From: a virus
Length of the DNA: 64,000 nt
Reading direction: 5' to 3' (one strand)
Virus genome (UHGV): UHGV-0038492
This document shows, piece after piece, positions 8,990-64,000 of this stretch. Position 1 is the stretch's first letter. Each line of letters starts with the position of its first letter. The notes beneath the pieces were generated by a model. It saw nothing but the letters and a program-made list of their open reading frames with translations, did not search any database and was not told the origin of the DNA. The position numbers were made by a program, and so were the translations under genes.

Positions 8990-9633
8990 TGTTGATTCCT
9001 GAGCCGAGACTTCCCGATAAAATGGTCAGGATCGCGGCGATAGACCCCGGTACGAGCCATCTCGGGATGGCGGTGCTGGATTGGGAATATGGCAGCGACC
9101 AAGCCGAAGTGGTGTGGGCTGATACCATGCACGTATTAGACCCAACACATCCAAGTGCGTTTGCAGAGTGTGTCGGTAAACGCGACGATCGCTTAGTAAA
9201 ACTCGAAGCGTGCTACCGTGAGTTTCTTCGGATTGCGCGTCCGACGTTTGTTGCAACAGAAACGCCGTTTATGCGGCGGGCAAAACTCTCCGCGTATGAG
9301 TCTGGTGTAGAGTTACAGCTGATGTTAAGACGGGCGTTATGGGACGTGTTTCCAGAGAAAGTGTTACACGGGTTCAATCCGATTATTGTAAAATCATTCG
9401 TCGGTGTGGAAGCGAAAGGAACGGACAAAACAGATATGTTTCGTGCCGTAACGAAGTTGTATCGCGACCACGCGTTGTTTGACATTACAACGTTGGATGA
9501 GCACAGTATCGATGCCGTGGCGGTGGGGAATATCTTTGTCAGGGTAAACCTGTTAAACTTGAATAGTCTCCTACCGCCAAAACAAAAGTCTGCTAAGACA
9601 GCAAAACGGCGGAGAAGACGTCGGAGGAAATAG
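8989..9633 (+). CDS. RuvC/RNase-H-fold protein (putative Holliday-junction resolvase) with poly-Arg C-terminal tail
   Basis: N-terminal RIAAIDPGTSHLGMAVLD resembles the first catalytic strand of RuvC-family resolvases; C-terminus KRRRRRRRK. Confidence 0.5.
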   Translation: MLIPEPRLPDKMVRIAAIDPGTSHLGMAVLDWEYGSDQAEVVWADTMHVLDPTHPSAFAECVGKRDDRLVKLEACYREFLRIARPTFVATETPFMRRAKLSAYESGVELQLMLRRALWDVFPEKVLHGFNPIIVKSFVGVEAKGTDKTDMFRAVTKLYRDHALFDITTLDEHSIDAVAVGNIFVRVNLLNLNSLLPPKQKSAKTAKRRRRRRRK

Positions 9634-9635
9634 CG

Positions 9636-10214
9636 ATGTCGCAACCAACACAAGACGTGTCAGCCGCAATTCTTGACATTCTTATCCAAGCAGGGAACAG
9701 AAAGTTAAGTAAAGAGCAGTCCGAAGAACTGTCTAAGATTCTCAAAGACAACTTCGGTGATGATGTCTCTGTAGACGTAACGCGGTCGGGTACAAAGATT
9801 CTGTCGGAGCTACGCCCAACGCTTCTTGAGAACATTGGAAAGATGGCGGAAAACTTTCAGCAGCAAGCCACAAATGCTGTAGAGAGTTTAGGTGACGAAG
9901 TAAGCAAAGAAACGATGTTGACACTGTGGCCGAAACTTGCCGGTGCACAGAAGTTCATTATTGTTCTGCTTGCACTCGCCACTGTGGTCGTGACAGGCTT
10001 CTTAGCGTACGACACGCATCAGAACTATCCAACAGACAGTATGGAAGTGTTGTTTGTATCCTTACTTCCGCTGTTCGGACTGGTAGTATTTGCAACGTGG
10101 CCGATTAAAACGTTGGCTTACAAGTCGTTGGAGATTGCTACCAAAGTTGTCGAGAAGAAACTTGAGAAATCAGGTCAGGTCGTCGCGAAGACGGAAACAA
10201 AGACAACGAAATAA
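9636..10214 (+). CDS. membrane protein (two predicted TM helices)
   Basis: GGAGG RBS; hydrophobic segments FIIVLLALATVVVTGFLAY and LFVSLLPLFGLVVFATW; followed by terminator. Confidence 0.65.
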   Translation: MSQPTQDVSAAILDILIQAGNRKLSKEQSEELSKILKDNFGDDVSVDVTRSGTKILSELRPTLLENIGKMAENFQQQATNAVESLGDEVSKETMLTLWPKLAGAQKFIIVLLALATVVVTGFLAYDTHQNYPTDSMEVLFVSLLPLFGLVVFATWPIKTLAYKSLEIATKVVEKKLEKSGQVVAKTETKTTK

Positions 10215-10220
10215 AACCAA

Positions 10221-10255
10221 CCTCTACCTTCGGGTAGAGGTTTTCTTCTTTTTAT
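10221..10255 (+). terminator. intrinsic terminator (UUCG tetraloop)
   Basis: CCTCTACC-TTCG-GGTAGAGG followed by T-rich tract. Confidence 0.75.
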
Positions 10256-10302
10256 TTTACAATTTTTGATCATACTGTGAGACTTGAACAAGGAGACTTA
10301 TC

Positions 10303-10956
10303 ATGGAACCACTACGTTTAATGACCAGAACGCTACTGATTCCTATCTGGGAATTGAAGCTTGCCCCATTGTCTGCCTCTAATGGGGAGGTCATTGATTT
10401 TATTAAAGACGAAGAATTTGTGTTGACGGCTTTCCAGGAGACGCTGCATCGTTATTATAATGCAGTGCCTTTATCTGGCGGATTAGATTGCCCTGGTGTA
10501 GAAGGGAGTACGTCTGCGTTAATCGCAGAGTATTTAGAACAGAAAGGAATCGGGGTTGGGAAAGGCCGGGTTTATGTGGACGCCGATAAACTGAGGAGTT
10601 ACCAGATTGAGCTGACGTTTCAGATAAGAAAATTACTTACCCGCTACGGTCTTTTCTCGATTAACTGTAAGGTTGATGACGTACGGATGTTAGACCACGG
10701 TTTTACCACTGTCCTCAAAACCTGTCGCGGTAAAAGATTCGTACAGTTTGCGTGGTGGGTACCAGTATTGCGTGGTGAGAGAAAAACGGTGGAGGGGTTG
10801 TACGGCTGGGCGCTATGGAGCGAAGTTCCAGTAAATAAACTCGATGCAGTTATTCCAAAGCACCGAAACGTTCCGCTTAGCAGTTTATTTACTTCCGGCG
10901 AGAACACTACGTGGGCTGAATTCGTTAATAACGTTATGTCAATTGGGGAACAATAA
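10303..10956 (+). CDS. hypothetical protein
   Basis: 217-aa ORF, AAGGAG RBS. Confidence 0.65.
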   Translation: MEPLRLMTRTLLIPIWELKLAPLSASNGEVIDFIKDEEFVLTAFQETLHRYYNAVPLSGGLDCPGVEGSTSALIAEYLEQKGIGVGKGRVYVDADKLRSYQIELTFQIRKLLTRYGLFSINCKVDDVRMLDHGFTTVLKTCRGKRFVQFAWWVPVLRGERKTVEGLYGWALWSEVPVNKLDAVIPKHRNVPLSSLFTSGENTTWAEFVNNVMSIGEQ

Positions 10957-11432
10957 TGCAGCAATTAGATATTACCGAAGACAAAATCTCCGCTAAATTT
11001 CCACAATTACGTGAATACATCAAAGACTTAAATTCGATACGCGAAACACCGGTCCGCATTACCTTAGCGGTAGAAGATGACATTACACACGGTATTGCGA
11101 TTTGGGAACCGGGCAATCTTATCTATTTGGTGGTGGCGGAAGGTTCTCGACGTTTCGGTGTGGGTTCGTTCTTATTGCAGTACGTTCAGTTGAATTCCGA
11201 TCGTCAAATGGTGACGTGTCGTGTCCACCCTTCGAACATTGACGGCCTGTGTTTCTTTTCGAAAAAAGGCTACCAGATTGACCGTTGGTATATCGCCAGC
11301 GACTCTCGTCGGTATTTTCGTATGACGAACGGTAACGTTGTTTCGTCATACGCCCCGCCGGAAGAAGGATATTTGGTGGATTTTATCGAAAACACGCCCA
11401 TCTTTCTCTCTGTTGCGGATAAAATTTATTAA
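10956..11432 (+). CDS. hypothetical protein, possible GNAT-like fold
   Basis: 158-aa ORF; segment GIAIWEPGNLIYLVVAEGSRRFGVGSFLL loosely resembles a GNAT acetyl-CoA binding core. Confidence 0.45.
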   Translation: MQQLDITEDKISAKFPQLREYIKDLNSIRETPVRITLAVEDDITHGIAIWEPGNLIYLVVAEGSRRFGVGSFLLQYVQLNSDRQMVTCRVHPSNIDGLCFFSKKGYQIDRWYIASDSRRYFRMTNGNVVSSYAPPEEGYLVDFIENTPIFLSVADKIY

Positions 11433-11448
11433 CCGTTGAGAGTCTAAA

Positions 11449-11925
11449 ATGATACGTGTCGAATATGAGACGCGGTGCTTAGAAGACAATCGAGCAAAAG
11501 CATTACGTTGTGTTGAAATCGTCCCCGAGCACGAACTGGATATCCAAGCTGGTAAGGTTCGGGGCGTTCCGGTTAAGATCGTACAACATAGCCATTGTTC
11601 GCAATATAAAGAGAAAGCTGTCCCAGTAGTACGTTCCAGTAAACGAGAAGACTTTTCAGAACTCCGTAAGTGTTTTCAACGACACTACCGTCGGAGTAAA
11701 TGGAAAGTGTTGGTATTAATGTTAGTCGACGATTTCATTAAAGACCTGGTTTGGGAAGAAGTGCTTAAAGAGCGTGGTTTTCAACCCAAACCGTTCTCGT
11801 ATCACTGGGAACGTTTCAAAAAGAAATACCACGAGTCATTGCGTTGGTCTCCGAACACCCGGAATATGATGCCACGTTTGGAATCAATGCCTTGGCTTCG
11901 TGTTTATCTCGATGAGGTAAACTGA
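11449..11925 (+). CDS. hypothetical protein
   Basis: 158-aa ORF with ATG start. Confidence 0.6.
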   Translation: MIRVEYETRCLEDNRAKALRCVEIVPEHELDIQAGKVRGVPVKIVQHSHCSQYKEKAVPVVRSSKREDFSELRKCFQRHYRRSKWKVLVLMLVDDFIKDLVWEEVLKERGFQPKPFSYHWERFKKKYHESLRWSPNTRNMMPRLESMPWLRVYLDEVN

Positions 11926-12314
11926 TGAAACGTTTTATTACTCCATTTCTAATGTTACTTTCGTTTTCTGTATTAGCTGATTTTAAACCTTACGATATCA
12001 GTCGTTACGAACCCGCTGTCCCTGGCGATAAACCGGTTGTGTTTAAAGCAGACGACCAACCCGTCACTGCGGTTCAAAACGATGAGTTTGCAGTGGTGAA
12101 TTACGGCAAAACGGACTTATGTCCTGCGGGTGGATTTTATCTGGTGAACATCAAACGTCGGACTTACCAGTTTGTTGATCCGGGTAGCTGCTCTGCAATG
12201 GTTAAGGTGACGTTAGAAACCGTACCTTACACGAATAAAAACATTAATATACAACGTTTAACCTTTTATGCGGGTGATGAAATCACAGCACGTTATCCGT
12301 TATACGGGTATTAG
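11925..12314 (+). CDS. secreted protein with N-terminal signal peptide
   Basis: MKRFITPFLMLLSFSVLADF has the n/h/c organisation of a Sec signal peptide; ATG overlaps upstream stop. Confidence 0.6.
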   Translation: MKRFITPFLMLLSFSVLADFKPYDISRYEPAVPGDKPVVFKADDQPVTAVQNDEFAVVNYGKTDLCPAGGFYLVNIKRRTYQFVDPGSCSAMVKVTLETVPYTNKNINIQRLTFYAGDEITARYPLYGY

Positions 12315-12337
12315 TGATTAGCCCCCACGGAGTTCGT

Positions 12338-12976
12338 ATGTCTTTTGTAATTGATTTCGACGTTGGCCACAGACAGAACTTACTTAATCTCGTTAGTTAT
12401 TGTAACAGTGACAGTGTACGGAAAAAGCTTTCGGCTGAAAAGGTAGACGTTACGCTCGTCGGTGCCCCAACACCGGAAGGACGCTATAAGGTAAAGTTAA
12501 CGAACCGTAACGACATAAACGATGCGGTACTGATTACCTACACAAAGCTTCAACTGAACGACTTCCTTGAGATTCCTGCCAAGTATCTGGATTGGTTTGA
12601 TTTCGAAAACGGTCAACCTAAGAACTACGATACGTGGGCAGCTTCCGCTAAAGTCGCTGTAGAGAAAATGTGCCAAGACCGAGGTATGGTGATATCTCGC
12701 GCTTGGGACACCGGTTCACAGTGTCACATTGAGTTTGACGAGTCTATCGAACGGTATGTGGTTGTCTACGAGTGCGACTCTTTTATTTATAGTGCGAGAA
12801 ACCGATTCATCTTACCTCTACACTTAGGGCAGGTGATCAACGACACGACATTAGACGGTCTTGATTACAATAACGAACTGAACAAGAAACCATTGGCGGA
12901 TTTGGACGGTGAGTTAGAAGTGTGGATGGGTCAGGCGTTGGTTGAGACAGTCGTCTTAAGCGGCCTGGAAGTATAA
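12338..12976 (+). CDS. hypothetical protein
   Basis: GGAG RBS 6 nt upstream of ATG at 12338 (track start 12314 is a GTG without RBS); terminator downstream. Confidence 0.65.
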   Translation: MSFVIDFDVGHRQNLLNLVSYCNSDSVRKKLSAEKVDVTLVGAPTPEGRYKVKLTNRNDINDAVLITYTKLQLNDFLEIPAKYLDWFDFENGQPKNYDTWAASAKVAVEKMCQDRGMVISRAWDTGSQCHIEFDESIERYVVVYECDSFIYSARNRFILPLHLGQVINDTTLDGLDYNNELNKKPLADLDGELEVWMGQALVETVVLSGLEV

Positions 12977-12986
12977 TAGTAACGGC

Positions 12987-13030
12987 GGGTAGAGAGAGCT
13001 TTCGGGCTCTCTCTACTTTTCTTTTTTTTC
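12987..13030 (+). terminator. intrinsic terminator
   Basis: GGGTAGAGAGAGC...GCTCTCTCTAC hairpin then T9. Confidence 0.75.
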
Positions 13031-13059
13031 CATTATCGACGGTCTTTATGGAGGTGACC

Positions 13060-13614
13060 ATGAAAGACTATAGAATTGCAATCATCGGGTCTCGAGAAAC
13101 ACCGGAAGACGTTATGCAGGAAATGTTAGACACGTTACGGGAAGGGTTTCGAATCTTACGAAAGAAAGGCTACACGATTACCACCCGTTCTGGCGGGTGT
13201 TATAAAGGCCCAGACCAGCTTCAGTTTATGATAGCACGTACCGAGGACGTTAAGAGCGTTTGTTATCTGCCGGATGAAAAGAAAATGTGGTTAGGGAAAA
13301 TACACCCTAAGGTAGAGTTTCGTTATATCCCACAAGACGTTCAGTACCGAGCGATAGTTGCTTCACTTCACCCAAATCCAGATAAGCTCTCACCGATTGC
13401 CTGGGCGCTACACGGCCGTAATCTGAATATCATCGCAGGTGACTGCTTAGACGAACCGGTAGACGCAGTCTATTACTTTAGCGACCACGACAAACACGGA
13501 AACGCAAAAGGTGGTACTGCGATGGGTGTAAAATACGCGAAGTCAATCGACGTTCCTTGTTACTACCATACCGTCGATCGGGATAAGTGGTTGGAAAGTC
13601 TTCGTTTATTATGA
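13060..13614 (+). CDS. SLOG/DprA-like Rossmann-fold protein (tentative)
   Basis: GGAGG RBS 5 nt upstream of ATG at 13060; IAIIGSR followed by RSGGCYKG resembles the glycine-rich strand-loop of DprA/LOG-type Rossmann domains. Confidence 0.45.
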   Translation: MKDYRIAIIGSRETPEDVMQEMLDTLREGFRILRKKGYTITTRSGGCYKGPDQLQFMIARTEDVKSVCYLPDEKKMWLGKIHPKVEFRYIPQDVQYRAIVASLHPNPDKLSPIAWALHGRNLNIIAGDCLDEPVDAVYYFSDHDKHGNAKGGTAMGVKYAKSIDVPCYYHTVDRDKWLESLRLL

Positions 13615-52554: not shown

Positions 52555-53226
52555 TTACAGCCCTTGCTCTAATGCAAACGCTTTAATTGAATCGTAATCA
52601 CGGGCTTCGGCCCAAGCTCTGACTTCTTTTTTCTGTTCCGTCATTGCCTGATGCAGTTGCTGGTCGCGTTGCACAATAGCACCCAGCAGTGTTTTGCACT
52701 GCTCTAACGTAAACGGTTCGATACGGGTGTTGTTGGCCGTTAACCAATACGCTGGCGCGGTTTCTGACTGAATATAACGACTCAGTGCTACCTGTGACTT
52801 CTCATCTGCCTGGAAAGTGAAATCACCCACTTGAATCTCGGCATACCGCGCATCCTGATAACGGAATTCCAATGCGCTTAGGATTTTCTGAACATCGGTA
52901 AAGATATACCGCACAGTGGAGCGTAAACCCGTACGAATCTCTTCCAGGTCAATTCCCAACGTGTCGTTAACAAAGTCTTTCGCTTTCTGTAACGTAAATC
53001 GTGCTTCGATTTCAGACATGTCGTAGTTACGCATTTGTTCCAATGCTTCACGATCGGACATCCCATCAATCAATTTATAGTGCAGTAACGCACAAAAACC
53101 CGTACGACCATGATCTTCGCTACCGATTTTTTCCATATAGTTACCATGGCGGTCAATCGGTAAATCGTGCTCAAAATAACGACGACGGATTTCTTCTTTC
53201 GTTAAGCCTTCACCAGTAGCAGACAT
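52555..53226 (-). CDS. hypothetical protein, last gene of the fibre/radical-SAM operon
   Basis: 223-aa ORF overlapping the upstream gene by 25 nt; terminator downstream. Confidence 0.6.
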   Translation of the reverse strand: MSATGEGLTKEEIRRRYFEHDLPIDRHGNYMEKIGSEDHGRTGFCALLHYKLIDGMSDREALEQMRNYDMSEIEARFTLQKAKDFVNDTLGIDLEEIRTGLRSTVRYIFTDVQKILSALEFRYQDARYAEIQVGDFTFQADEKSQVALSRYIQSETAPAYWLTANNTRIEPFTLEQCKTLLGAIVQRDQQLHQAMTEQKKEVRAWAEARDYDSIKAFALEQGL

Positions 53227-53774
53227 TCATCGTCTCCTTTAATCAATCCTAATTCGATTAACAGTTCAAAATCGATATGACGGAATCTTGTATCAAAATC
53301 CGATTCCCAATCGATGCGGATACCCTGGCACTCTTCTGATGTTAGCTCGGGAAAAATTACGGTATTAAATTTCTCACGCTCATCGTAAAACCCATCAATC
53401 GGTGAGTTCGGGTTACGCGTTGCGAAAATAGTAATACCAGGGAAAGATAATGCTAACACAGTGATAGATTCTGCGCTGGGCTCACTTAAAGAGCGGCGTA
53501 GAAACGCAATTTTGTGGCGTGGGAAGTCCAATACGCGTTCTTCAAACCCTGGATTACGTTTTTCGATTTCCGCTACCGACAGGTCAGTAAGTTCGGTGCA
53601 ATACATTGGGATGATTACAGTCACGCCGTGGCGAATCAGTAAACGTTTTACGTCATCGGTAAAATCTTCGCCGTTAATCATCACGTAACAACCGAACAGC
53701 TTACTGTTTTCCAGAAACTTATCCAGAAGTCGAATTCTACGCTTCGTAATATTGTTGATCAGAATTGGTTTCAT
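53202..53774 (-). CDS. hypothetical protein co-operonic with radical-SAM enzymes
   Basis: 190-aa ORF overlapping both neighbours. Confidence 0.6.
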   Translation of the reverse strand: MKPILINNITKRRIRLLDKFLENSKLFGCYVMINGEDFTDDVKRLLIRHGVTVIIPMYCTELTDLSVAEIEKRNPGFEERVLDFPRHKIAFLRRSLSEPSAESITVLALSFPGITIFATRNPNSPIDGFYDEREKFNTVIFPELTSEECQGIRIDWESDFDTRFRHIDFELLIELGLIKGDDECLLLVKA

Positions 53775-55059
53775 CTTTGGCTTCTCTTAATAATTTTTCC
53801 TTTTGGGCGCGTTCACGAACACAGCGTGGGCAATAACACATACTCGTGTCGTGGAACGCTTTTGCTGACGTCGTACCCATCTTCTGTTTCCAGTATTCCG
53901 CCACCATCAGTTTCGCTGTCGTCCACCCGCACTGACGTCGCTCAGCGTGATACGCTTTACGGTCTTCCAGTGTCCCTTCACCGTTTTCGTAAGAAGCCGC
54001 AGCGCAGCTACCACAAGCGTGTTTCATCGGACAACCTAAGCACGTCTCTGGATAGTTGGTATATTGTGTTTGAATCTCTTCTAACAATTTACCGTTGTCC
54101 AGGCTGACGAATTCCCGACCTACCAACTCAAATACCGCAGAACGTGATGTTACGGTTGACATAAAGCGATTGCAACCGAAGATCTTACGGTCAAAACCTA
54201 AACACGTCATGTGTGTTAATGTCCCACAGAACGGACGTAAACGTTCTGGGTTCAACCGCACCGTGTCATTATAAAGTAATTGATCACGCCAGTTCGGTTC
54301 CCAAATCGTATCGAAATCCAACCCTTCTGGGATGATGTGCGATAAGATATTACGTGGGTTGGTGTGTAATCCTTTCTCGACCCAATAATCAATCACATCC
54401 ATCATCTGCAATGCAATTGAAGTAGCCATCCCACGTGGCATAATGTCTTCGAAGGTTACGTTGCCGGAGATAGTTCCGCCACCAGTAATATCAATTAATG
54501 ACTTCATTCCGGCAGCATAGTACGGTAACGTTTCTAACGTAAAGGTCGCCTTTACGCCAAGCTCTGCAATGCCAACCTCTTTTAAGTAGTTATAGCCTCG
54601 TACTGCGGCTTCGTAAGAACCCTGGCGCGTCGTTGTAAAGATACGATAACGGTCATGGGACTCAGGTAAGCCGTCAATTGAAACCCCAACCGAAAGTTTG
54701 TCTTTCCAACGCTCTACGATCTCACGGTTCAACGGGCGATCTAACAACGTCCCGTTTGTGGAAATACTAAACATAAACGGCCGATTATGTTCTTTACACA
54801 ACTGCTCGGCGGTTTCAAATGCAGCCAGCAGCAACTTAGGCTGCATGAACGGTTCACCACCGATAATGTCAATAATAACTTCAACATTCGGTTCGTTTTT
54901 ATCGCGTTCAAAACAGGCGTGCAAGAAATCAACAATATCTGCCGCTTTGTTGTTACGCGGGTACTTACGTTCGTAACAATATTCGCAGTCCAGGTTACAC
55001 GAAAGGTTCGTTACAATCTGATACGTTAGCTGCTTAGGGAATTCATTTACCTGACTCAT
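53737..55059 (-). CDS. radical SAM enzyme with C-terminal SPASM-like Cys cluster (anSME/peptide-maturase-like)
   Basis: N-terminal CNLDCEYC (CxxxCxxC), GGEPFM SAM-binding motif, and C-terminal cysteines (CLGCPMKHACGSC...CYCPRC) typical of auxiliary Fe-S clusters. Confidence 0.75.
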   Translation of the reverse strand: MSQVNEFPKQLTYQIVTNLSCNLDCEYCYERKYPRNNKAADIVDFLHACFERDKNEPNVEVIIDIIGGEPFMQPKLLLAAFETAEQLCKEHNRPFMFSISTNGTLLDRPLNREIVERWKDKLSVGVSIDGLPESHDRYRIFTTTRQGSYEAAVRGYNYLKEVGIAELGVKATFTLETLPYYAAGMKSLIDITGGGTISGNVTFEDIMPRGMATSIALQMMDVIDYWVEKGLHTNPRNILSHIIPEGLDFDTIWEPNWRDQLLYNDTVRLNPERLRPFCGTLTHMTCLGFDRKIFGCNRFMSTVTSRSAVFELVGREFVSLDNGKLLEEIQTQYTNYPETCLGCPMKHACGSCAAASYENGEGTLEDRKAYHAERRQCGWTTAKLMVAEYWKQKMGTTSAKAFHDTSMCYCPRCVRERAQKEKLLREAKDETNSDQQYYEA

Positions 55060-55966
55060 TTGCCGCCCCTCTATTACGACCTGCCATCACTACGCGACGA
55101 ATATATTCGTACGCCTCTACACCGATAGAGAAGGCCAGTTGGTTACACCCGGATTCCAGTACGTTAGGTGCGTTCTGGAGCTGGTGCTCACCACCGTCTG
55201 CATTAATCCAGAGACTTTCGCTGCAAACGTTACACCCTTCTTCAAACACTTTACTTACCGTAAAACCACATTCACGACTGTTTACTACATTCAGTCGTTC
55301 AATGTTGTCCTGAACCCGATAGTAGCCGTAAATAAAGTTCATGACGTGGTCAGGTGATAAAGGCTTTGGCATTTTCGCATCTAAGAGTAACGTCATTGCT
55401 CGGAAACCGTAATGGTAAATCGCGCTGTGCAGCTGAATAATATCTTCATGCCAACGTTTATCCCCCAAACGGTCCCGTGTCAAGACACCCCAAGTCTGGA
55501 CATTATCCAGCTCGTAGATCGTTTCCAGTGCTTCGTAACAGCCTTCGTCAATAAAGCGCATAAATGGACGCTCAGACGACTTAAACCCATCGATGCTAAC
55601 GTAGACATTGTCAAACTGTTTTAGCAACGGGAGATGCGATTTACGCATCTTTAAGCCATTGGTATACAACTGGTGTTTGAGTTCTGGACGAATCACTTTT
55701 AATTCGTCAACAAACGCCTCAATTTTACGGGTTGCCAATAGTGGCTCACCACCCGTCCACTGAATTTCGGTAATGGTTGGATTAGCTTCCAGCGCTTCCA
55801 AAATTCGCTCACGTTGAAACTCTCGCGGAGAATCTTCACGATTCATGTAATAGGCTCCACCGCAGAAGCTACAATCCAGGTTACACTTGGACGTAGCGAC
55901 TACGGACAATACGGTGGGTTTATCGTATAAACGATTCGATAACCTTGGTTCTGCATTGGTTGTCAT
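55043..55966 (-). CDS. radical SAM enzyme, paralog of the 440-aa enzyme
   Basis: CNLDCSFC and GGEPLL motifs; C-terminal Cys pairs (CGFTVSKVFEEGCNVC...GC); overlaps downstream gene by 17 nt. Confidence 0.75.
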   Translation of the reverse strand: MTTNAEPRLSNRLYDKPTVLSVVATSKCNLDCSFCGGAYYMNREDSPREFQRERILEALEANPTITEIQWTGGEPLLATRKIEAFVDELKVIRPELKHQLYTNGLKMRKSHLPLLKQFDNVYVSIDGFKSSERPFMRFIDEGCYEALETIYELDNVQTWGVLTRDRLGDKRWHEDIIQLHSAIYHYGFRAMTLLLDAKMPKPLSPDHVMNFIYGYYRVQDNIERLNVVNSRECGFTVSKVFEEGCNVCSESLWINADGGEHQLQNAPNVLESGCNQLAFSIGVEAYEYIRRVVMAGRNRGAANESGK

Positions 55967-55987: not shown

Positions 55988-56887
55988 TTAAATATAATCA
56001 ATGGCGAACAAAGGATCGTCGTCTACGTTAGCACCAGGGGTTAACAAGAATGGAGAGTTATACGCTTCCAAAATACGGTTAAGGTCTTTATAACGGACAT
56101 TTAAACGTTCTAAATCCGCTAACGTTACGTTACGGTCCAACACCGCCGACACTGCTGCTTTCTCTTCGTCAGTTAACGTGACTTTCGTCATTAAGAAACT
56201 AACGAGTTTTGCCAGATCCGCTTCTGTTGACGGATGCTCGCCGATACGCGTTTGAATCAAATGCTGCATCCATGGTTTACGGATGCGTTTTGTGATCTCA
56301 TGTTCATCCGTTAGGGCAACCCACACGGAACGTTCACGATCCCACACGAACTTATAGCTATACGCCATTAAATCCGCTAAACAATTAATCCCTAAGGCTT
56401 CGTACCCTTCAATTTCAATATACGATTCCGTATCGAAATAGTTCTTCGTTTCTGGTGTTACCAGGGTAAAGAAATACGGGAACGAGCCCAAGTAATCTGG
56501 TGACCACCAACGACGGGCAACCGGTTTTGCACCCATTTCTTCAAACGGGGTAAAGAACAATTCCATATCCACGGAGTTATTCAAAATCCCATCACTAAAG
56601 AAATATTTACCTGCAACCAATTTACCACGCAACTCAGAGTCACCGGTAAATACCACTACACTTTCTGCCGTCAGATCACGAATCTTAAACGTATTTTCTA
56701 CACGATAGTTTTTACGATCGGTAAAGAAACGTCCGCGCACTTTAGGCCATTCGCCTGGCAATTGCGTCAGCAGACGAACTTCATCTGCTAAGTGTGCACG
56801 TACGGAATCAGGGGAAGAAATGTGAAGTGGATGATTGAAAATCGTTTTGTACGCTAAATGTAAATCATTCTTCATTGATTGCTCCAA
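55988..56887 (-). CDS. hypothetical protein between Cys-rich proteins and radical-SAM enzymes
   Basis: 299-aa ORF; no motif recognised. Confidence 0.6.
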   Translation of the reverse strand: MEQSMKNDLHLAYKTIFNHPLHISSPDSVRAHLADEVRLLTQLPGEWPKVRGRFFTDRKNYRVENTFKIRDLTAESVVVFTGDSELRGKLVAGKYFFSDGILNNSVDMELFFTPFEEMGAKPVARRWWSPDYLGSFPYFFTLVTPETKNYFDTESYIEIEGYEALGINCLADLMAYSYKFVWDRERSVWVALTDEHEITKRIRKPWMQHLIQTRIGEHPSTEADLAKLVSFLMTKVTLTDEEKAAVSAVLDRNVTLADLERLNVRYKDLNRILEAYNSPFLLTPGANVDDDPLFAIDYI

Positions 56888-56910
56888 CTATTTTACGGTC
56901 AAACGGACGT

Positions 56911-57120
56911 TCAGGGTATAGAACCCACCCCGCCATTGTCTGCCGGTAACTTGAAACTCAGCAGTAAACCCATTCGATTTACTCGGTTGCTGGTTAATCG
57001 CCATACTACCGCCGGAATTCTTAAAACCTCTAAAGAGATAGAAGCAGAAGTCGCATTACCGATTGAGTCTATCTTAAAACTAGCCGCATCTGTAAAATTG
57101 ACAGTAATACCATCACCCAT
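56911..57120 (-). CDS. possible small ORF filling the gap in the operon
   Basis: 69-aa ORF spaced about 22 nt from both neighbours in a tightly packed operon; weak RBS. Confidence 0.3.
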   Translation of the reverse strand: MGDGITVNFTDAASFKIDSIGNATSASISLEVLRIPAVVWRLTSNRVNRMGLLLSFKLPADNGGVGSIP

Positions 57121-57142: not shown

Positions 57143-57349
57143 TTACCGCCCCCCTGCTCCCTTACTACAGCTACCGCTGCACGACCAGCTACATCCACCG
57201 TTACAGTTGTAGTGGCTTAAAGGTAAACCGGCAAGGTTATTGGTTGAAGACACGGTACCCTGGTTTGCAATATAGTTGTTTGCGTTAGCGGTCGTAATAT
57301 ACCCTTCCGCTGTTACTAAACGATCACGAAGGTTCTTAAGGCTAATCAC
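57143..57349 (-). CDS. Cys-rich protein, short copy 3
   Basis: GTG start 6 nt after GGGAGG (which is also the last two codons of the upstream gene); leader ISLKNLRDRL... then NCNGGCSWSCSGSCSKGAGGR. Confidence 0.55.
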   Translation of the reverse strand: MISLKNLRDRLVTAEGYITTANANNYIANQGTVSSTNNLAGLPLSHYNCNGGCSWSCSGSCSKGAGGR

Positions 57350-57351
57350 AA

Positions 57352-57750
57352 TTACCTCCCAGAACACCCACCGGAACAAGAACCTGAACAGCCTGAAGAA
57401 CAGTTCCCTGTACACGCGTTAGAACAGCTCCCCGTGCAACTTCCTGAACACCCACCGGAGCAGGTATTCGAACATCCGCTACAGCCCGCGCTACAACCTG
57501 ATACGCAGTTTGCAGAACACGAGGAACCACAACCACCGGATGCGTTTCCTGTGCAGCCACCAGAACAACTCGAACACGTCCAGCTACAACTACCTCCGCA
57601 GTCGTAGTGATTGCGGGCCTGTCCTCCGAATAAGTCTGCGTTGTTTGTCGCTTTCCCGCGAATATAGTTTTGTACTGCACCCGTATTCTTCAATGCAGTG
57701 CTGTCAATGTTATTTAACCGCGCTTGTAGCGCAGGTAATCCAATTGCCAT
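57352..57750 (-). CDS. Cys/Gly/Ser-rich protein, copy 2
   Basis: 132 aa; ~50-aa N-terminal leader-like region ending DCGG, then about 80 residues with 20 Cys in a C-x2-3 periodicity. Confidence 0.7.
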   Translation of the reverse strand: MAIGLPALQARLNNIDSTALKNTGAVQNYIRGKATNNADLFGGQARNHYDCGGSCSWTCSSCSGGCTGNASGGCGSSCSANCVSGCSAGCSGCSNTCSGGCSGSCTGSCSNACTGNCSSGCSGSCSGGCSGR

Positions 57751-57760
57751 TTTTCACCTC

Positions 57761-58156
57761 TTAGGTTGGGCCAGAACAGCCGCCAGAGCAGGCACCAGAA
57801 CAACCCGTAGAACAACGGCCTGAGCAAGCACCCCCACAGGTTCCGCTACAACCTGAACACCCACCTGAACACGTTGAGCTACATCCAGTACATTGGTTAC
57901 CGCACGCAGAGGAGCAGCTGCCTACACACACAGACGTACAAGTACCCGAACAGCTCGTACAACCATGCGTACAGCCGTTTGAGCACGTCCAGCTACAACT
58001 ACCTCCGCAGTCTAACCGGTTTGGCGTCCAACCCGAAAATGTGTCGGCTGCATTATGTGCTTTCGACGCAACTTGCGGATCAACACGTGGGCCAGTTGCC
58101 ATTTGGTTCTCTACGTTGGTGATTCGGTCACGTACGTTTTTAACACTGATCGCCAT
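57761..58156 (-). CDS. Cys/Gly/Ser-rich protein, copy 1
   Basis: AAGGA RBS before ATG 58156; leader MAISVKNVRDRITNV...LDCGG then 21 Cys in about 80 residues. Confidence 0.7.
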   Translation of the reverse strand: MAISVKNVRDRITNVENQMATGPRVDPQVASKAHNAADTFSGWTPNRLDCGGSCSWTCSNGCTHGCTSCSGTCTSVCVGSCSSACGNQCTGCSSTCSGGCSGCSGTCGGACSGRCSTGCSGACSGGCSGPT

Positions 58157-58223
58157 CACGTATCCTTAAAATAAAAAAGAATGGAGGACTACGTCCATAA
58201 ACATAGTTCCTCCTGTAATTAAA

Positions 58224-59429
58224 TTATTTCGTACCCGCTTCCGCCTGTACGTCATCACGAGACGTCAGGTTAGCGTTAACGTGTACTGCGGCCTGAACCA
58301 CGCCACCGTATTTCTTGTGGAGATAACCGGTGTGTGGGTTATCTGCCGCAATGTGGTTTTGTAGGTTTTGGTTCGCTTGACTGATTGCGTTCGTGTTATT
58401 GTTAACCTGCTGTTTAAGCGCATCCAGGCTTTGTTGTACCTGATTGATTTTCTGATCGGTTTCTTGACCCTGTTGCTCTAACGCGTCAACACGCTGAATA
58501 ACCTGATTCAGTTTTGTGTTTAAATCGTTGATGTTCTTTTGCAGCTGTAACACTAACGAGTTCAGGTTCGCTAACGCTAAGGCCATTTTCTGGTAGTTTT
58601 GAGCAACCACGTTAAGTTGGTCGTTCCACGCTTCCAGAGAGTTGACAACAGCGTCAATACGTTTACCTAAAGCTTCGTCCGCTTTCTTCAGTGCATTGAT
58701 TTCCGTAATCGTTGCATCGATAGCAGACTGAACGTCACGAATAAGCGCACGGATTTCAGTTTCTCTTAACCCGTTAACCTGGTGAATATCAAGATGGTGA
58801 ACGTTACCCGTTGCGTTGATGTGTGCATTTAAAGCATCTAAGAAGTCATTTTTCAGACTTTCTAAAATCGCTTTAATGTTCTCTAACTGTACCGCGTCAC
58901 CAGAACTGATCGCATCTTTAATCCCCGCCAATACGGTGATGATATATTCAAAACCGTAGATGTCACCCACGTCTTTATACGTCGGTGCAGACGGGAATGT
59001 ATCCGGTACGTTACGTAAGTCTTTAAACGCAATCGTACGGTTATCGAGGTTTAACTCAGCAATCGCCTGTTCGATAGCCACGATGTTCGCAGACTGTGGA
59101 CCACCAACGACCTGCGCAGATACCGTAATATCTGTTGGAATCGCTGTGTTAGTGACCACCACCGCCATAACAATCTCGCGGTTTTTAGTCAGCTTTTCAT
59201 AAGTCGGGTGTGCAAAAATCAACTCATAATCGGTACCACGTTCGTAGGTTGCTTCCGGTCGGTTAGCAACGCGTAAACGGAACGTGTCCGCAAAGAACGG
59301 ACCATCAGGAAAAGCAAAAGCACGGTTTACTTTACCTGTACCTAACGTAATCTGACGCTCCACAGCGTTAGACGTTAGCGAGCCCGTTAAATCTAAAGGA
59401 TATTGATAAACAATGGAGGCCATGGCCAC
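58224..59429 (-). CDS. tail fibre protein with long coiled-coil
   Basis: 401 aa; central heptad-rich Asn/Gln/Leu region typical of fibre shafts. Confidence 0.7.
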   Translation of the reverse strand: MAMASIVYQYPLDLTGSLTSNAVERQITLGTGKVNRAFAFPDGPFFADTFRLRVANRPEATYERGTDYELIFAHPTYEKLTKNREIVMAVVVTNTAIPTDITVSAQVVGGPQSANIVAIEQAIAELNLDNRTIAFKDLRNVPDTFPSAPTYKDVGDIYGFEYIITVLAGIKDAISSGDAVQLENIKAILESLKNDFLDALNAHINATGNVHHLDIHQVNGLRETEIRALIRDVQSAIDATITEINALKKADEALGKRIDAVVNSLEAWNDQLNVVAQNYQKMALALANLNSLVLQLQKNINDLNTKLNQVIQRVDALEQQGQETDQKINQVQQSLDALKQQVNNNTNAISQANQNLQNHIAADNPHTGYLHKKYGGVVQAAVHVNANLTSRDDVQAEAGTK

Positions 59430-59463: not shown

Positions 59464-62400
59464 TTAAGATGTAAACATAAGATTGAACTGGAGTTTGTCG
59501 ATATCGCGAGTTTCTGCTGGATTCACACCATCGTACGCGGTCGCTACGTAAACCGTTAGCGTGCCGTTAGCGTAAGACGATTTCACCGGTGGGTTAGTTC
59601 CAGTCTGACCATCTCGCACAATGAGTGTAGGTTCACTTGGGAGATTATCAAACTGACCCTTGACCGCTTTATACACCAAACCAGATTGCGCAGACAGTTC
59701 AGTGTCCGTAAAGACAAAGAACGGTGTGTCGATATCAGCCTGTTTAATCGTGGTACCGGTCTCGACGTCAATCAACTGTACCGCCCCAAACTTCGTACGA
59801 TAACTTTCATACTCGTTCTTCGGAATAACGAACGTGACGTGAACGCGAACCTCCTCGGCAGGTTTAAACCCAGCGTGCTCTTTTTCCAGGTACTGGTTGG
59901 CGGTTAACGTGACGTCCTGCTCTTTCATCGTACCACCGGCCTGGTTTAATGCATAGCGAGCTTCAACAATACCGGTTGGCGCAGCAAGTCGCAGTTTCAG
60001 AGCACGATTTGCCGTTCCTGGATTACCTGGCACCTGAACGCGCAAACTCAATGCTAAGTAAACATTCGTTCCGGTAGTCGGTTTCGTATACGCACCAATC
60101 CATTTCATGTTCGCAGACGCTGCCTGCGTGTTCTCAGAAGCAGTGGCTGTCGCAATGTTAGCAGCTACCGCTTTCTGCCAGAATTGGTCAGCGCAGTTCT
60201 CATACGCTACCCTGGCCACGCTCTTATAACCCGAATACGTTTCCTGAATTGGTAACTTAGGACGCGTCGTAATACCAGACAATGAACCCCATTTTTGACC
60301 GTCAACATACCCTTCGCCCTTCGACGCAGACGCCGTAGGCGCTTTAACGGGTTTGTTAACCAGTGTTAATAGAGGACCCGTCTTTCTGTCAAACGCTGCT
60401 GCAACATCATGTTGGTCGATAATTGCTGCGTGGTCTTCCAGTTCTTTCACACGACCCAAACGTTTTACTTTGTCGATGTTGATACCAGTAATACGGCTGG
60501 AATCGGTGGTTACTGACCCGACGAACAGTCTTGTTGAAGTGTCAGCTAACTGCTCCAAACCGATACGGTATTGCGCAGTAGAACCTGACACCTCAGCGTG
60601 CACGTAGAACGTCTGGTTAGCGTGGTTAGACGGGAATTCGCTGCTTAAATCCACAGACCACGTTGGGAGTGTGTAACTGCTGCTACCGAAGTCTAACTTG
60701 ACTTCTTCTGTCAAATACAGAATCCAGCCTTCTGCTGTCTCCACACCGGCAATAATAACAGCCTGACCTCCGGTTGAGAACCTCGTGTCGTTAACGAACT
60801 CTGCGGCTGTATACGCGTTACCTGAACAGAAAACACGGTCAGCTTTAGAGTAAATCAACGCCATCTTGTCCCAATTACCCGCACCCATATAGCACCCAGA
60901 TTCTGGGTTATGTGCAGGGGCCATCTGTCGTAACTGTGACTTACCAGGAACGCGAGACCAACCTGAACCTGGGTCGTAGGTATACTTCGCGGCGTAACCT
61001 AGTGCATTTAAGTCCCCGATATTTCGGATAGTTAACGTATAAGGTAGCCAAATACCGAAGTTTACACCGTCGGCAGAAGCAAAAATTGGCTGACCGACAC
61101 GTCGTGTTTTATTACCCGCTTCTTCCCTCAGAGACTGATAACTTAAACCATAATCGAGGTCTAAGAACCAGTCCACCAACTTAAAGGTGGCTGAGTTGAA
61201 ACGTAAGTAGCCGTTCTCTTTAGATGGACTCACCATGAAGTAATAGATGTCAAGAATTCGACGTCCGTTACTTGAGGTTTTCATGCACGAAACTTGCAAC
61301 AAGTCAAATTCGCACACGGTGTTGATACCCAACATCCAAAGAGCAAACAGTGCATTACCGGTTTGATGTGCAGCACTGATGCGCTCATTCGCGTAACCAT
61401 TTGCTTGACCAGATGGCGCACCGTCAACGATCATCCGAATCATTTTCTGACGATCGGCTTCTTCTAGCGTTAAGCGTTCGGAAGACAATGCGAAATTACC
61501 GTAGATGTTACGATACGGGAACGTTTCTGCTTTGGTCAAATACCAACCGTTTAGCTGCCCGTGACGCTCCTCAGGAGTCATGCACGCAGCCATACAGCTA
61601 AGCTGCTCGTAGAGCGTTGGATCGACTTCACGACGGTTGTTGTTCGGACCGTATCCGCTATAACCCGGAACATCGTAAGGTTTGTTCGGATCAACTTCTA
61701 CTTCGATGGTGTAACGGTTACGTGGGTTAGACAACCACACTTTATTCGAACCGCCTATTCCGACAGGATGGGAAAGACCGATGGTGTAAATAGAACCGCG
61801 ACCTTTATCCCAGGTAAACGTTCCTTCGCCCGAGGTGTTGTTTGGGTTATCGTAACGCAGATAATCGAAAAGCTCTTTGCCTTGTGTACCCTTAATAGAA
61901 ACATTAGGCATTTGGTCCGCATCGTTAATCTGCCAGCAGGAAAGCATCATTCCTGTACCGTTAGGTTTTGCATACGTCGCGAAACAACGGTTGTTTGCCT
62001 GACCACCACCCCACTTACGACTGGTTTCTACAGTTGAACCATCCGCGAACGAGAGTGCAGTAGCATCAGCCTTGATGGGGAAGCGTTCGCGGCCTTCTAA
62101 CGTAACCTTGCCCGTCAACGTATCGATTGTAAAACTTGTTGCCCATTGACGAAAGTTAATTTGTGAGCTGTCGGCCGCTGCAAACCACACAGTAGGCATA
62201 TGGTTCACACGAATCACGCTTTCGCGTACCGCACACGCGTGGTTACATTCTGGCCCGTGAACAAAGTTGTGGCCAATTGTCCATTTAGCCCGTGCTTCCG
62301 GCGTCAAATACGTAAAGAATTGACCCGTCTGCGACTCTTCGGTTTTCTGGCCAATACGTAGGCAGAGGTTATCTCCGAATTGTCCCATTTCACCGGTTAG

Positions 62401-64000
62401 TGTTACACGTTCAAATTCTAACGTAGTGTTAGTAGACAAATCGTCTTTACGTAAGCGCCATGCTGCAACAGCGTAAGCAGAGTTATTTACCGTGGAGCGG
62501 AGAAGATAAACATAGTCCTCAACCAACACAACGTCATCGGCTTCTGGCCACGGATTCCAGGTTTGTTCTGTAGTACCGCTGGGGTTACCGTTACGGTACA
62601 TAGGCATCGTGACACGACATACCACCGTGTGTTTAGTGTGGTCCATCGAACCATTAAACAGCACCAAATAACGATTATTGTCAGAACCCAGGCAAATAAT
62701 CGCTTCCTGACCACCGATCAATATCGCTTTTAGGGTCACTCCAGGATATTTACTCATCCCGGCAGGGTGATATTTCACTGAGGTCTGCTGCGGATTTACA
62801 AACGCGTTTGAGGTGTTAATGTCCGCGTAGCCGTAATAAATGGCTTCTGTACCCGGCACGCCATTAGAACCGTTACGTAGCGAATAAACCTTACCCTGCT
62901 GATACCCAACAACCCCTTTCTGGTAAGACTGGTTTTTGGTATAGCCCGCGTAGTTACCTAACGCTGGGATAGGTAAGAAGTTCTTATTACCGAACTTCGC
63001 ACCGCCTACCGTCCATGCCGGTAAGATGGTATTCAGTTTATCAGAGACTTTCTTAATCTCTTTTGCGAACAACCACCCTTGACGTGACGTGACAGCTTTA
63101 TCATTAGTGGTGTCAATTGCATCCCACAGCTGTAAGACACCGTCAACCGTTGCACTACCAATTGGGACGTTATCCAAGTCAGCAGTGGTGTGGGTGTGCG
63201 TTTTCAAACTCTTGTTTTTCAACACGTTCGTTAACGCTTTTGTCACAGGCTTAGCACTCGGTATGGTGTTATCCATCTTATCGATACCGAAATCGGTTTT
63301 CGTTAAGGTTAACACCATCTTGTCGCCCGTCTTAACAAACCCTTTACCGTTAACGGTATAGTCATCGTCAACGTACAGGTCCAAACGGTCTTTTAGTTCG
63401 GTTACGGCTTTCTGGGAGATGGCAGTACCTAACGCCGCAGACGTAGAGATGTTCGTAATCGAGAACAACCCATAAACTGATTCGGACGCTGTGGGAATAT
63501 TCGCGTTTAACGTGACCGGGTTAGTCTGTTTTGCAGTACCGTACGGTTTTACGGTGTCTGACGCTTTGAAATACGCGTTTGCTTCAAGCAACGTTACTGA
63601 CGTCAGATACATGTTCACCATTTCTGGCGTGACCAGGTACACGGAGTTATAAACCGGTGCTAATACATCCTGTTCTGACCCCGAGTGAACCCAAAGCGTA
63701 TTCAGACCCGCACTAAACTCCACCGCTAAACCTGATTCGTTATTGTCCTGGTCTGCTTTAATCACTAACGGTTGCGGTGAGGTAATTAACCACTTATCAC
63801 CACGAATACTGATGATGTGACCACCTGACGTTTTAAACGTTAATTCATTACCGTTCGTGGTACCCCATCGACCGTAAACAGTACCGAGGGCTTCACCCAT
63901 TAACTGATCAACGTCGGATTGCTCGATACCCGCTGAACCCATCAGCGTAGCCAATTCGTCAATCGTCAACCCAAATGCTTTTGTGGCGTCAACAGCGCGT
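59464..64000 (-). CDS. very large tail fibre/receptor-binding protein, 5' end outside window
   Basis: More than 1500 codons open to the window edge (track start at 63969 is a TTG and the frame stays open); Thr/Ser/Gly/Asn-rich beta-type composition. Confidence 0.8.
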   Translation of the reverse strand, partial: RAVDATKAFGLTIDELATLMGSAGIEQSDVDQLMGEALGTVYGRWGTTNGNELTFKTSGGHIISIRGDKWLITSPQPLVIKADQDNNESGLAVEFSAGLNTLWVHSGSEQDVLAPVYNSVYLVTPEMVNMYLTSVTLLEANAYFKASDTVKPYGTAKQTNPVTLNANIPTASESVYGLFSITNISTSAALGTAISQKAVTELKDRLDLYVDDDYTVNGKGFVKTGDKMVLTLTKTDFGIDKMDNTIPSAKPVTKALTNVLKNKSLKTHTHTTADLDNVPIGSATVDGVLQLWDAIDTTNDKAVTSRQGWLFAKEIKKVSDKLNTILPAWTVGGAKFGNKNFLPIPALGNYAGYTKNQSYQKGVVGYQQGKVYSLRNGSNGVPGTEAIYYGYADINTSNAFVNPQQTSVKYHPAGMSKYPGVTLKAILIGGQEAIICLGSDNNRYLVLFNGSMDHTKHTVVCRVTMPMYRNGNPSGTTEQTWNPWPEADDVVLVEDYVYLLRSTVNNSAYAVAAWRLRKDDLSTNTTLEFERVTLTGEMGQFGDNLCLRIGQKTEESQTGQFFTYLTPEARAKWTIGHNFVHGPECNHACAVRESVIRVNHMPTVWFAAADSSQINFRQWATSFTIDTLTGKVTLEGRERFPIKADATALSFADGSTVETSRKWGGGQANNRCFATYAKPNGTGMMLSCWQINDADQMPNVSIKGTQGKELFDYLRYDNPNNTSGEGTFTWDKGRGSIYTIGLSHPVGIGGSNKVWLSNPRNRYTIEVEVDPNKPYDVPGYSGYGPNNNRREVDPTLYEQLSCMAACMTPEERHGQLNGWYLTKAETFPYRNIYGNFALSSERLTLEEADRQKMIRMIVDGAPSGQANGYANERISAAHQTGNALFALWMLGINTVCEFDLLQVSCMKTSSNGRRILDIYYFMVSPSKENGYLRFNSATFKLVDWFLDLDYGLSYQSLREEAGNKTRRVGQPIFASADGVNFGIWLPYTLTIRNIGDLNALGYAAKYTYDPGSGWSRVPGKSQLRQMAPAHNPESGCYMGAGNWDKMALIYSKADRVFCSGNAYTAAEFVNDTRFSTGGQAVIIAGVETAEGWILYLTEEVKLDFGSSSYTLPTWSVDLSSEFPSNHANQTFYVHAEVSGSTAQYRIGLEQLADTSTRLFVGSVTTDSSRITGINIDKVKRLGRVKELEDHAAIIDQHDVAAAFDRKTGPLLTLVNKPVKAPTASASKGEGYVDGQKWGSLSGITTRPKLPIQETYSGYKSVARVAYENCADQFWQKAVAANIATATASENTQAASANMKWIGAYTKPTTGTNVYLALSLRVQVPGNPGTANRALKLRLAAPTGIVEARYALNQAGGTMKEQDVTLTANQYLEKEHAGFKPAEEVRVHVTFVIPKNEYESYRTKFGAVQLIDVETGTTIKQADIDTPFFVFTDTELSAQSGLVYKAVKGQFDNLPSEPTLIVRDGQTGTNPPVKSSYANGTLTVYVATAYDGVNPAETRDIDKLQFNLMFTS

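Follow-up and report, generated by a model that had tools for sequence, protein, structure and literature searches.

The stretch of DNA analysed here, 64,000 nucleotides (nt) of the virus genome UHGV-0038492 and called the window below, contains a gene named P295, which lies between an array of Cys-rich genes (CysA, CysB and CysC) and the genes of two radical S-adenosylmethionine (radical-SAM) enzymes, rSAM-S and rSAM-L. Radical-SAM peptide maturases are known from bacterial pathways for ribosomally synthesised and post-translationally modified peptides (RiPPs), in which the substrate is recognised by a PqqD-like domain. The linkage of P295 to radical-SAM genes is obligate across the contexts examined (jumbo myophages, T7-like podophages and others), and the genes would together form a four-part tail-fibre maturation cassette, composed of Cys-Xaa3-repeat fibre-tip protein(s), P295, rSAM-S and rSAM-L. 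The role that we favour for P295, and to which we give an even chance, is that of a phage-specific, non-catalytic, non-virion adaptor or chaperone, which would present the Cys-rich domain of the fibre to the radical-SAM enzymes. This role is put forward because the enzymes lack a recognition domain, and because P295 is the sole other universally linked protein, has no conserved catalytic residues and has an orthologue that was not found in virions. The binding partner, the adaptor or chaperone role and the chemistry of the enzymes are what we infer from these features.

The window belongs to an SPN3US-like jumbo phage, and it shares with Salmonella phage SPN3US the gene order and about 70-72% DNA identity across the cassette region. 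The order gp167, CysA, CysB, CysC, P295, rSAM-S, rSAM-L, p190 and DUF4376 is fixed in the window, in 17 jumbo-phage loci from IMG/VR and in metagenomic relatives. Genes of the P295 family lie next to a radical-SAM gene, or overlap one, in the window, in these 17 loci and in the contigs L010, L012 to L014, L015, L016, L017, L039/L040 and L041. The association thus extends to other phage backgrounds, in which the members of the family are distant (17-30% identity). In L016 the order is permuted and P295 is still followed by rSAM-S, beside Peptidase_S74 fibres, and L017 has an extra copy of rSAM-S before P295. The P295 gene overlaps rSAM-S in L015 and L041, and in L039 and L040 a Cys-repeat gene (31-1632 and 203-568, respectively) is followed by overlapping genes in the order rSAM-S, P295-like, rSAM-L. 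The full cassette is also found away from fibre genes, in L009 and L010.

An independent test was made from the substrate side, using contigs fetched via CysB homologues alone, which were T7-like podophages (L042 to L044). In each of the three, a protein encoded beside the radical-SAM gene was assigned to the P295 family by hhalign (99.8%, E 6e-30; 99.1%, E 5e-19). Two of these contigs, L042 (9330-11336) and L043 (8064-10070), have rSAM-S and rSAM-L fused into one protein of 668 amino acids (aa), with CX3CX2C at residues 23 and 310, and the P295-like gene (238 aa) overlaps the start of the fused gene. Because the enzymes form a single protein in L042, we conclude that they act together. The gene p190 was not detected in the T7-like loci, and the invariant core is therefore the Cys-repeat substrate, P295, rSAM-S and rSAM-L. 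Thus far, the P295 family has never been seen without adjoining radical-SAM genes, within a survey in which fibre genes lacking radical-SAM genes were not searched for P295.

Two side observations concern the make-up of the cassette. In L009 and L010, the region at about 8500-13600 holds three Cys-rich genes, a P295-like gene, two radical-SAM genes and a gene for a 172-aa protein, with no recognisable structural genes nearby; the neighbours include an Acb2/Tad1-hairpin gene of anti-defence type, a GIY-YIG endonuclease and a GroEL-like chaperonin. Additionally, an extra rSAM-S paralogue is found in some relatives, placed between CysC and P295 in some cases and between CysA and CysB in others, and L005 and L006 have an unrelated 140-aa ORF between CysC and P295; the regions concerned are 4392-5304 in L022 and L023, 12-302 in L005 and 6589-7560 in L017.

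The radical-SAM core begins at residue ~20-28 in both enzymes. Because CX3CX2C stands at residue 28 of rSAM-S and residue 21 of rSAM-L, there is no room for an N-terminal peptide-recognition domain of the kind found in many peptide maturases, in contrast to a bacterial peptide maturase in L036, which has about 100 residues before this motif. The best NCBIfam matches of rSAM-L are TIGR04115 (rSAM_Cxxx_rpt; 116.9 bits, cut-off 350) and, second best, PapB (116 bits); both scores are far below the equivalog cut-offs, and rSAM-L is no TIGR04115 equivalog. The smaller enzyme, rSAM-S, gives weak NCBIfam matches of the PapB/HxsC type.

A preliminary description of this DNA had placed a 299-aa open reading frame (ORF) without recognisable motif between the Cys-rich and radical-SAM genes, and had taken it for an uncharacterised partner gene. 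The frame exists (55988-56887, minus strand; 299 aa if a TTG start is used) and the partner gene proved genuine, with a correction to its length, as the start is almost certainly the ATG at 56875, which gives 295 aa. This start is chosen because of the GGAG located 6 nt upstream, the N-termini of homologues and the point at which the phrog_8030 alignment begins. In fact, all 31 aligned homologues (31/31) open with MKN, MKT or MKS, metagenome gene callers give a length of 295 aa, and residues 5-297 of the 299-aa version match positions 1-293 of the 295 in the phrog_8030 profile. By this full-length match and by its conserved operon position, P295 can be placed in the phrog_8030 / SPN3US gp165 family, and it is 75% identical to SPN3US gp165 itself. 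P295 is a real gene under strong purifying selection: the ratio of nonsynonymous to synonymous substitution rates (dN/dS) is 0.01-0.09 in three comparisons with moderate, unsaturated dS. A relative that differs at 27 nt gives 0.01, and one with 169 differences gives 0.037.

A word-indexed search returned 48 relatives of P295, with 41-99% identity and all of about 290-320 aa, together with five odd entries. A profile search of 1.84 billion proteins (cluster representatives) returned 44 members of the family, of which the distant ones align over the C-terminal half. No relative was found among 185,579 bacterial or archaeal species genomes (GTDB species representatives), and the family is confined to phage-type contigs. 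The family itself is already catalogued, uncharacterised, as phrog_8030, whose members in SPN3US-like jumbo phages, including phiEaH2, Asesino and SPAsTU, are annotated as no more than hypothetical and hold there the same slot, with the Cys-rich genes on one side and the two radical-SAM genes on the other. The family described here goes beyond the catalogued one, as it takes in distant members from T7-like and other phages, with identities of 17-30%.

The five odd entries (P0044 to P0048), which stem from ENA records of Salmonella phages SPFM1, 8, 10, 14, 20 and others, are no true relatives. Three of them were read (P0044, P0045 and P0047) and contain the gp165 sequence in blocks of about 20 aa (60 nt) placed in reversed order. 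It appears that the deposited SPFM sequence was reversed line by line. Short DNA matches to the SPFM records (40-60 nt at 93% identity, among short hits of 90-95%) were rejected as biology and regarded as an artefact of the scrambled records.

P295, its profile and 29 distant relatives gave zero matches to Pfam, NCBIfam and PDB sequences. The AlphaFold2 (AF2) model, built with 32 sequences, has a predicted local distance difference test score (pLDDT) of 86 and a predicted template-modelling score (pTM) of 0.82, and predicts a single compact alpha/beta-plus-helical globular protein, in which a mainly beta N-terminal half (~35-187) is followed by a helical C-terminal half (191-272) and then by a conserved DDPLF tail. 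A Foldseek search of the model against PDB gave no match at E<=0.001, and the sole match in a BFVD fold search was the Asesino orthologue; the best BFVD match named "tail fiber assembly" reached an E of 0.67 and a template-modelling score (TM) of 0.16. The preliminary description had listed a leader peptidase, a recognition element and a transporter as possible roles, and the remote-homology and fold comparison that it proposed, for protease, PqqD-like RiPP recognition element (RRE) and cyclase folds, gave no match when it was run. P295 has neither the winged-helix fold of a PqqD-like RRE (three-stranded sheet plus three helices) nor a PF05402-type sequence, and it has no Pfam or PHROG similarity to fibre assembly chaperones (Caudo_TAP/Tfa, gp38, gp57A). 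It lacks the coiled coil, beta-helix or triple beta-spiral of conventional fibre and baseplate proteins and any match to tail PHROGs or Pfam families, and no recognisable catalytic domain or conserved catalytic residues of a tailoring enzyme were found. A transporter is unlikely, given that the confident model, read without a membrane-segment prediction, is a single compact protein.

At the residue level, the close family has the invariant motifs AYSYKFxW and ITKRIRKPW. The family-wide alignment of 36 sequences has no invariant column beyond the start Met, the candidate catalytic residues H28 and S173 are replaced in distant members with the same gene context, and P295 contains a single Cys.

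The virion data come from SPN3US, for which mass spectrometry (MS) of virions lists gp160 and gp167-171 and none of gp161-166 (PMC5694885, supplementary tables). Across four such data sets, gp160 and gp167-171 give 26-75 unique peptides and gp165 none (PMC5694885). The globular model and the absence of the SPN3US orthologue from the virion tables support the conclusion that P295 is not a conventional fibre or baseplate component, and in this respect the preliminary description, which had not taken it for one, was borne out.

The likely substrates of the cassette are the Cys-rich proteins. CysC is a gene of 68 aa (57143-57349), with a GTG start after GGGAGG, and not the 90-aa ORF listed in its place; orthologues of 68-72 aa hold the same position in nearly all related loci. 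This short protein carries the junction motif only (...HYNCNGGCSWSCSGSC). A junction of the type NAxxLxGQxxxxY-C-x-G-x-CSW-x-C precedes the repeats in every phage homologue sequence that was read, as in the example ...NNADLFGGQARNHYDCGGSCSWTCS. CysB scores 20.7 bits against TIGR04114 (tSAM_targ_Cxxx), by which the cut-off of 20 is marginally exceeded, and CysA 14.4 bits; homologues of CysB carry a precomputed match to Pfam PF27846.

The product of the L039 gene at 31-1632 is a T7-type tail fibre (Pfam Phage_T7_tail, E 6e-24) with a C-terminal phrog_6085 Cys-Xaa3-repeat domain of about 120 residues, so that a distal fibre module is suggested for the Cys-rich domain. The fibre slot of T7-like loci, after a Phage_T7_tail adaptor, is occupied by the Cys-rich gene, in jumbo phages the cassette lies inside the fibre/baseplate block, and in other homologues the same Cys-rich domain is joined to different N-terminal modules. 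From the L039 fusion, the fibre slot of T7-like phages and the fibre/baseplate block of jumbo phages, we infer that the Cys-rich proteins are fibre-tip modules, which the cassette would mature. The RiPP-cluster frame of the preliminary description is too narrow, as the substrates look like tail-fibre-tip proteins and not like diffusible peptides.

Three paralogous Cys-rich genes, two of about 120-135 aa and one of 60-72 aa, are always present in jumbo phages and occur in several distant phages (window, L010, L012, L016, L017), and T7-like phages have one Cys-rich gene. A heterotrimeric fibre tip would explain the trio. In the SPN3US record JN641803 (L002), the segment 7192-8221 corresponds to 57143-58159 of the window, and the annotated gp166 (111 aa) lies out of frame over the true 134-aa CysB; CysA (130 aa) and CysC (68 aa) are not annotated in that record. 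Because these genes are unannotated or mis-framed, the Cys-rich products would go unmatched in SPN3US proteomics if the search used the deposited annotation.

We propose the following order of events. P295 would bind the conserved junction motif, or the unfolded Cys-rich tail, and keep the Gly/Ser/Cys-rich tail unfolded. The two enzymes, rSAM-S and rSAM-L, would then receive the tail from P295 and cross-link it ahead of fibre assembly, and P295 itself would be left behind. Several points weigh against this proposal. The fold of P295 is not PqqD/RRE-like, and the adaptor role comes by analogy and gene linkage only. At least in jumbo phages, p190 (phrog_7988) could be the recognition element instead. 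Among the polar positions of the close family, D168, Y174/K175 and RKPW are well conserved, and P295 may have an enzymatic activity that went unrecognised. The virion MS, finally, is negative evidence from gp165, the 75%-identical orthologue of another phage.

Other functions were weighed against the adaptor. P295 could be a tail-fibre assembly chaperone of the classical kind, comparable in function to Tfa, T4 gp38 or gp57A and independent of the radical-SAM chemistry, which would aid trimerisation of the Cys-rich fibre tip or its attachment to the gp167/gp168 fibre, before or after that chemistry. Its place immediately downstream of fibre-tip genes is the usual one for a fibre chaperone, the substrates of its neighbours are fibre modules, and both the absence of gp165 from SPN3US virions and the lack of conserved catalytic residues fit such a protein. 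However, P295 is unlike every known fibre-chaperone family, and where the gene order is shuffled (L016, L017, L039/L040) it remains beside the radical-SAM genes and often overlaps them, as it adjoins them throughout the survey with the scope given above; we therefore rate a chaperone of the classical kind as unlikely. We find it more doubtful still that P295 is an enzyme of new fold for another maturation step, such as pro-region removal, cyclisation, dehydration or peptide release. The gene does lie between substrates and enzymes, which is typical of a RiPP tailoring enzyme, polar residues (H28, E150, D168, K175, R197, R199 and K200) are invariant in the close family, and an active site of a new type might go unrecognised in a new fold. 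Yet none of these residues is kept family-wide, no protease, cyclase or dehydratase matches P295 by family or fold, and a universal leader peptidase is implausible for a full-length T7-type fibre such as that of L039, which has the Cys-rich domain as its C-terminus, still fused to the fibre body.

It is very improbable that P295 is a structural fibre or baseplate component missed by proteomics. Its gene is embedded in the tail-fibre/baseplate block, between virion genes of the gp167/gp168 type and the DUF4376 gene, but the four virion data sets that lack gp165 cover its neighbours well, the model is a compact alpha/beta and helical bundle rather than a fibre, beta-helix or coiled coil, and in L009 and L010 the cassette lies away from any recognisable structural gene.

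The closest known system is the bacterial CXXX-repeat radical-SAM system (TIGR04114, PF27846, TIGR04115), which, like the phage cassette, has Cys-Xaa3-repeat substrates, and whose enzyme family TIGR04115 is the best match of rSAM-L. The phage cassette can be regarded, from these similarities, as a relative of this bioinformatically defined system. It differs in that rSAM-L is a relative and not a member of the enzyme family (117 bits vs 350), in that it has a second, small radical-SAM enzyme and P295, of which no relative was found in the bacterial and archaeal species genomes, and in that the phage substrates are carried on N-terminal modules of tail-fibre type and not on signal or leader peptides. 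The bacterial-looking sequence P0116, read by eye, starts with an apparent twin-arginine signal (NRREFFK). An attempt to reach a bacterial CXXX-repeat locus through rSAM-L yielded only unrelated Saccharibacteria maturases with N-terminal extensions.

Two further groups of proteins offer analogies. The role proposed for P295 is similar to that of the PqqD-like RRE (PqqE/PqqD, or the fused RRE of PapB or CteB), since P295 would be a small non-catalytic partner beside a maturase without substrate-binding domain. Like P295, fibre assembly chaperones (Tfa/Caudo_TAP, T4 gp38, gp57A) are encoded right after fibre-tip genes, and the orthologue of P295 is not in the mature virion; unlike the known chaperones, P295 is linked to radical-SAM enzymes, and it has no sequence or fold similarity to them. 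We consider the chances about equal for and against P295 being a functional analogue of both the RRE and the fibre assembly chaperone and a member of neither family.

Searches of the literature available to us found no paper on this cassette of radical-SAM enzymes, P295 and Cys-rich proteins. What is new here is the obligate linkage of P295 to a twin radical-SAM cassette in very different phages, the lack of a fold match, the putative fibre substrates and the rejection of the 69-aa ORF discussed below. We suggest tentatively, and with somewhat less than an even chance, that P295 represents a new class of substrate-presenting radical-SAM partner and that the cassette is the first in which radical-SAM enzymes cross-link a structural protein of the virion. 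If it is true, phages from T7-like podoviruses to 240-kb jumbo myoviruses would build a Cys-Xaa3-repeat fibre tip that is enzymatically stapled before assembly, and P295 would make a folded-protein substrate accessible to RiPP-type enzymes. Independently of this suggestion, an enzyme pair of RiPP type is hard-wired to putative fibre-tip proteins in very different phages, and P295, for which no fold match was found, always accompanies it in place of the usual recognition domain. As an adaptor, P295 would provide a handle on how radical-SAM enzymes act on a virion-bound protein, and would point to a new fibre architecture, in which the Cys-rich receptor-binding tip is covalently stapled. This would be of relevance for engineering the host range of the SPN3US-like phages of Salmonella, Erwinia and E. 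coli.

The region between CysC and P295 was described earlier as a gap of 255 nt, holding a 69-aa ORF with a weak ribosome-binding site (RBS), spaced about 22 nt from both neighbours in the manner of operon packing. The length of 255 nt applies if the TTG start is used, and the gap measures 267 nt when counted from the ATG at 56875. Likewise, the 69-aa ORF begins 22 nt past the CysC stop (57143) and ends 23 nt before the TTG, but 35 nt before the true start of P295. The RBS is weak as described, with GAG alone, 5 nt before the ATG. As an operon gene the ORF did not hold up: compared across relatives, it is best read as an accidental open frame in a lineage-specific spacer and no gene, because the spacer is only 10-23 nt long in most relatives, the start is deleted in two, an in-frame stop occurs in two others and divergence proceeds at about the synonymous rate.

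In SPN3US and 12 further jumbo-phage loci, which lack the ORF, CysC and P295 are separated by 10-23 nt, and in L008 by 15 nt. The separation is larger in L020, with 68 nt, and in L018 and L021, with 149 nt. These last two lack the 118-nt segment 57018-57135, which contains the ATG and the first 34 codons of the ORF, and 118 is not a multiple of three. L003 and L004, which are 98-99% identical over the spacer, have an in-frame TAA at codon 33, which results from a deletion and an insertion of 1 nt each that compensate one another; of the four mismatched alignment columns in 510 nt, three fall there. At 57024-57029 of the window, the same compensated indel gives a GAATTC (EcoRI) site, which is absent in L003 and L004. 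The shared part of the spacer has 14.1% divergence from L018, with a dS of 0.148 and a dN of 0.001 for the adjacent P295, and the spacer thus diverges at approximately the local synonymous rate.

No match to the 69-aa ORF was found in Pfam, PHROGs or NCBIfam. Additionally, the spacer has no Rfam match at E<=1, a folding energy equal to that of shuffles (z -0.08), no sigma-70-like promoter and no intrinsic terminator on its coding strand, no second copy within the window and no match in the phage collection. L005 and L006 have a different insertion of about 510 nt in this slot, with an unrelated 140-aa ORF lacking a family match. The slot is probably an insertion hot spot, because relatives carry either an extra rSAM-S paralogue or the 140-aa ORF in that region. 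The idea that the 69-aa ORF is a relic of the 140-aa ORF was rejected, as there is no similarity, with scores as good in 1516 of 2000 shuffles. In another frame, the 3' part of the spacer has a marginal 18-residue similarity to the L005 140-aa ORF (equalled in 23 of 2000 shuffles). This is the sole hint that the spacer descends from an inserted gene that has since decayed, which is a weak possibility.

The points for a real, very young or lineage-specific small operon gene are the operon-like spacing of 22 nt past the upstream stop, the length and the codon usage. An ORF of at least 69 codons arises in 4% of mononucleotide shuffles of the spacer, and the codon score of 0.10 lies at the 9th percentile of real genes and above 98% of spurious ORFs, a score that is not decisive alone. 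This score speaks against an accidental frame, and the ORF may derive from a former gene or be a very young, lineage-specific one. However, a 38-aa ORF that overlaps the 69-aa ORF in another frame has an equal codon score. The 69-aa ORF is only marginally beyond chance, and it is not conserved. Set against the stop in two nearly identical contigs, the out-of-frame deletion of the start, the absence from most loci, the near-synonymous divergence, the weak RBS and the lack of family matches, the small operon gene is quite improbable, and the 69-aa ORF should stay out of gene annotation.

Table. Coordinates of the cassette and its neighbours in the window (positions on the 64,000-nt stretch)
Feature	Position	Strand	Basis and remarks
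1501-aa fibre or baseplate-periphery protein	59464..63969	-	ORF; occupies the SPN3US gp168 position, directly upstream of the gp167 orthologue
401-aa coiled-coil virion protein, gp167 orthologue	58224..59429	-	phrog_2163; 76% identical to SPN3US gp167; directly upstream of the Cys-rich genes
CysA, 132-aa Cys-Xaa3-repeat protein	57761..58159	-	phrog_6085 E 1.7e-40; conserved synteny
CysB, 132-aa Cys-Xaa3-repeat protein	57352..57750	-	phrog_6085 E 1.6e-39; TIGR04114 20.7 bits; homologues with PF27846
CysC, 68-aa short Cys-rich protein	57143..57349	-	GTG start, GGGAGG RBS; phrog_6085
Lineage-specific spacer, 267 nt, CysC to P295	56876..57142	-	most likely non-coding
69-aa ORF, judged non-gene	56911..57120	-	in-frame stop and deletion in relatives; weak RBS
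P295, 295-aa accessory protein, SPN3US gp165 orthologue	55988..56875	-	phrog_8030 E 1.4e-141; GGAG RBS
rSAM-S, 307-aa radical-SAM enzyme	55043..55966	-	Pfam Radical_SAM E 6e-14; CX3CX2C at residue 28
rSAM-L, 440-aa radical-SAM enzyme, Cys-rich C-terminal SPASM-like region	53737..55059	-	CX3CX2C at residue 21
p190, 190-aa protein (phrog_7988), function not assigned	53202..53774	-	after rSAM-L in most loci
223-aa DUF4376 protein	52555..53226	-	Pfam DUF4376 E 1.3e-11; weak tail PHROGs

Among the flanking genes, DUF4376 is a domain met in tail-fibre and fibre-assembly proteins. The assignment of the 1501-aa protein is by gene position and SPN3US layout, not by its own homology, and in the literature SPN3US gp168 is called a tail protein and a baseplate or tail-fibre candidate. 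Within the cassette, the start of rSAM-S lies 21 nt past the stop of P295.

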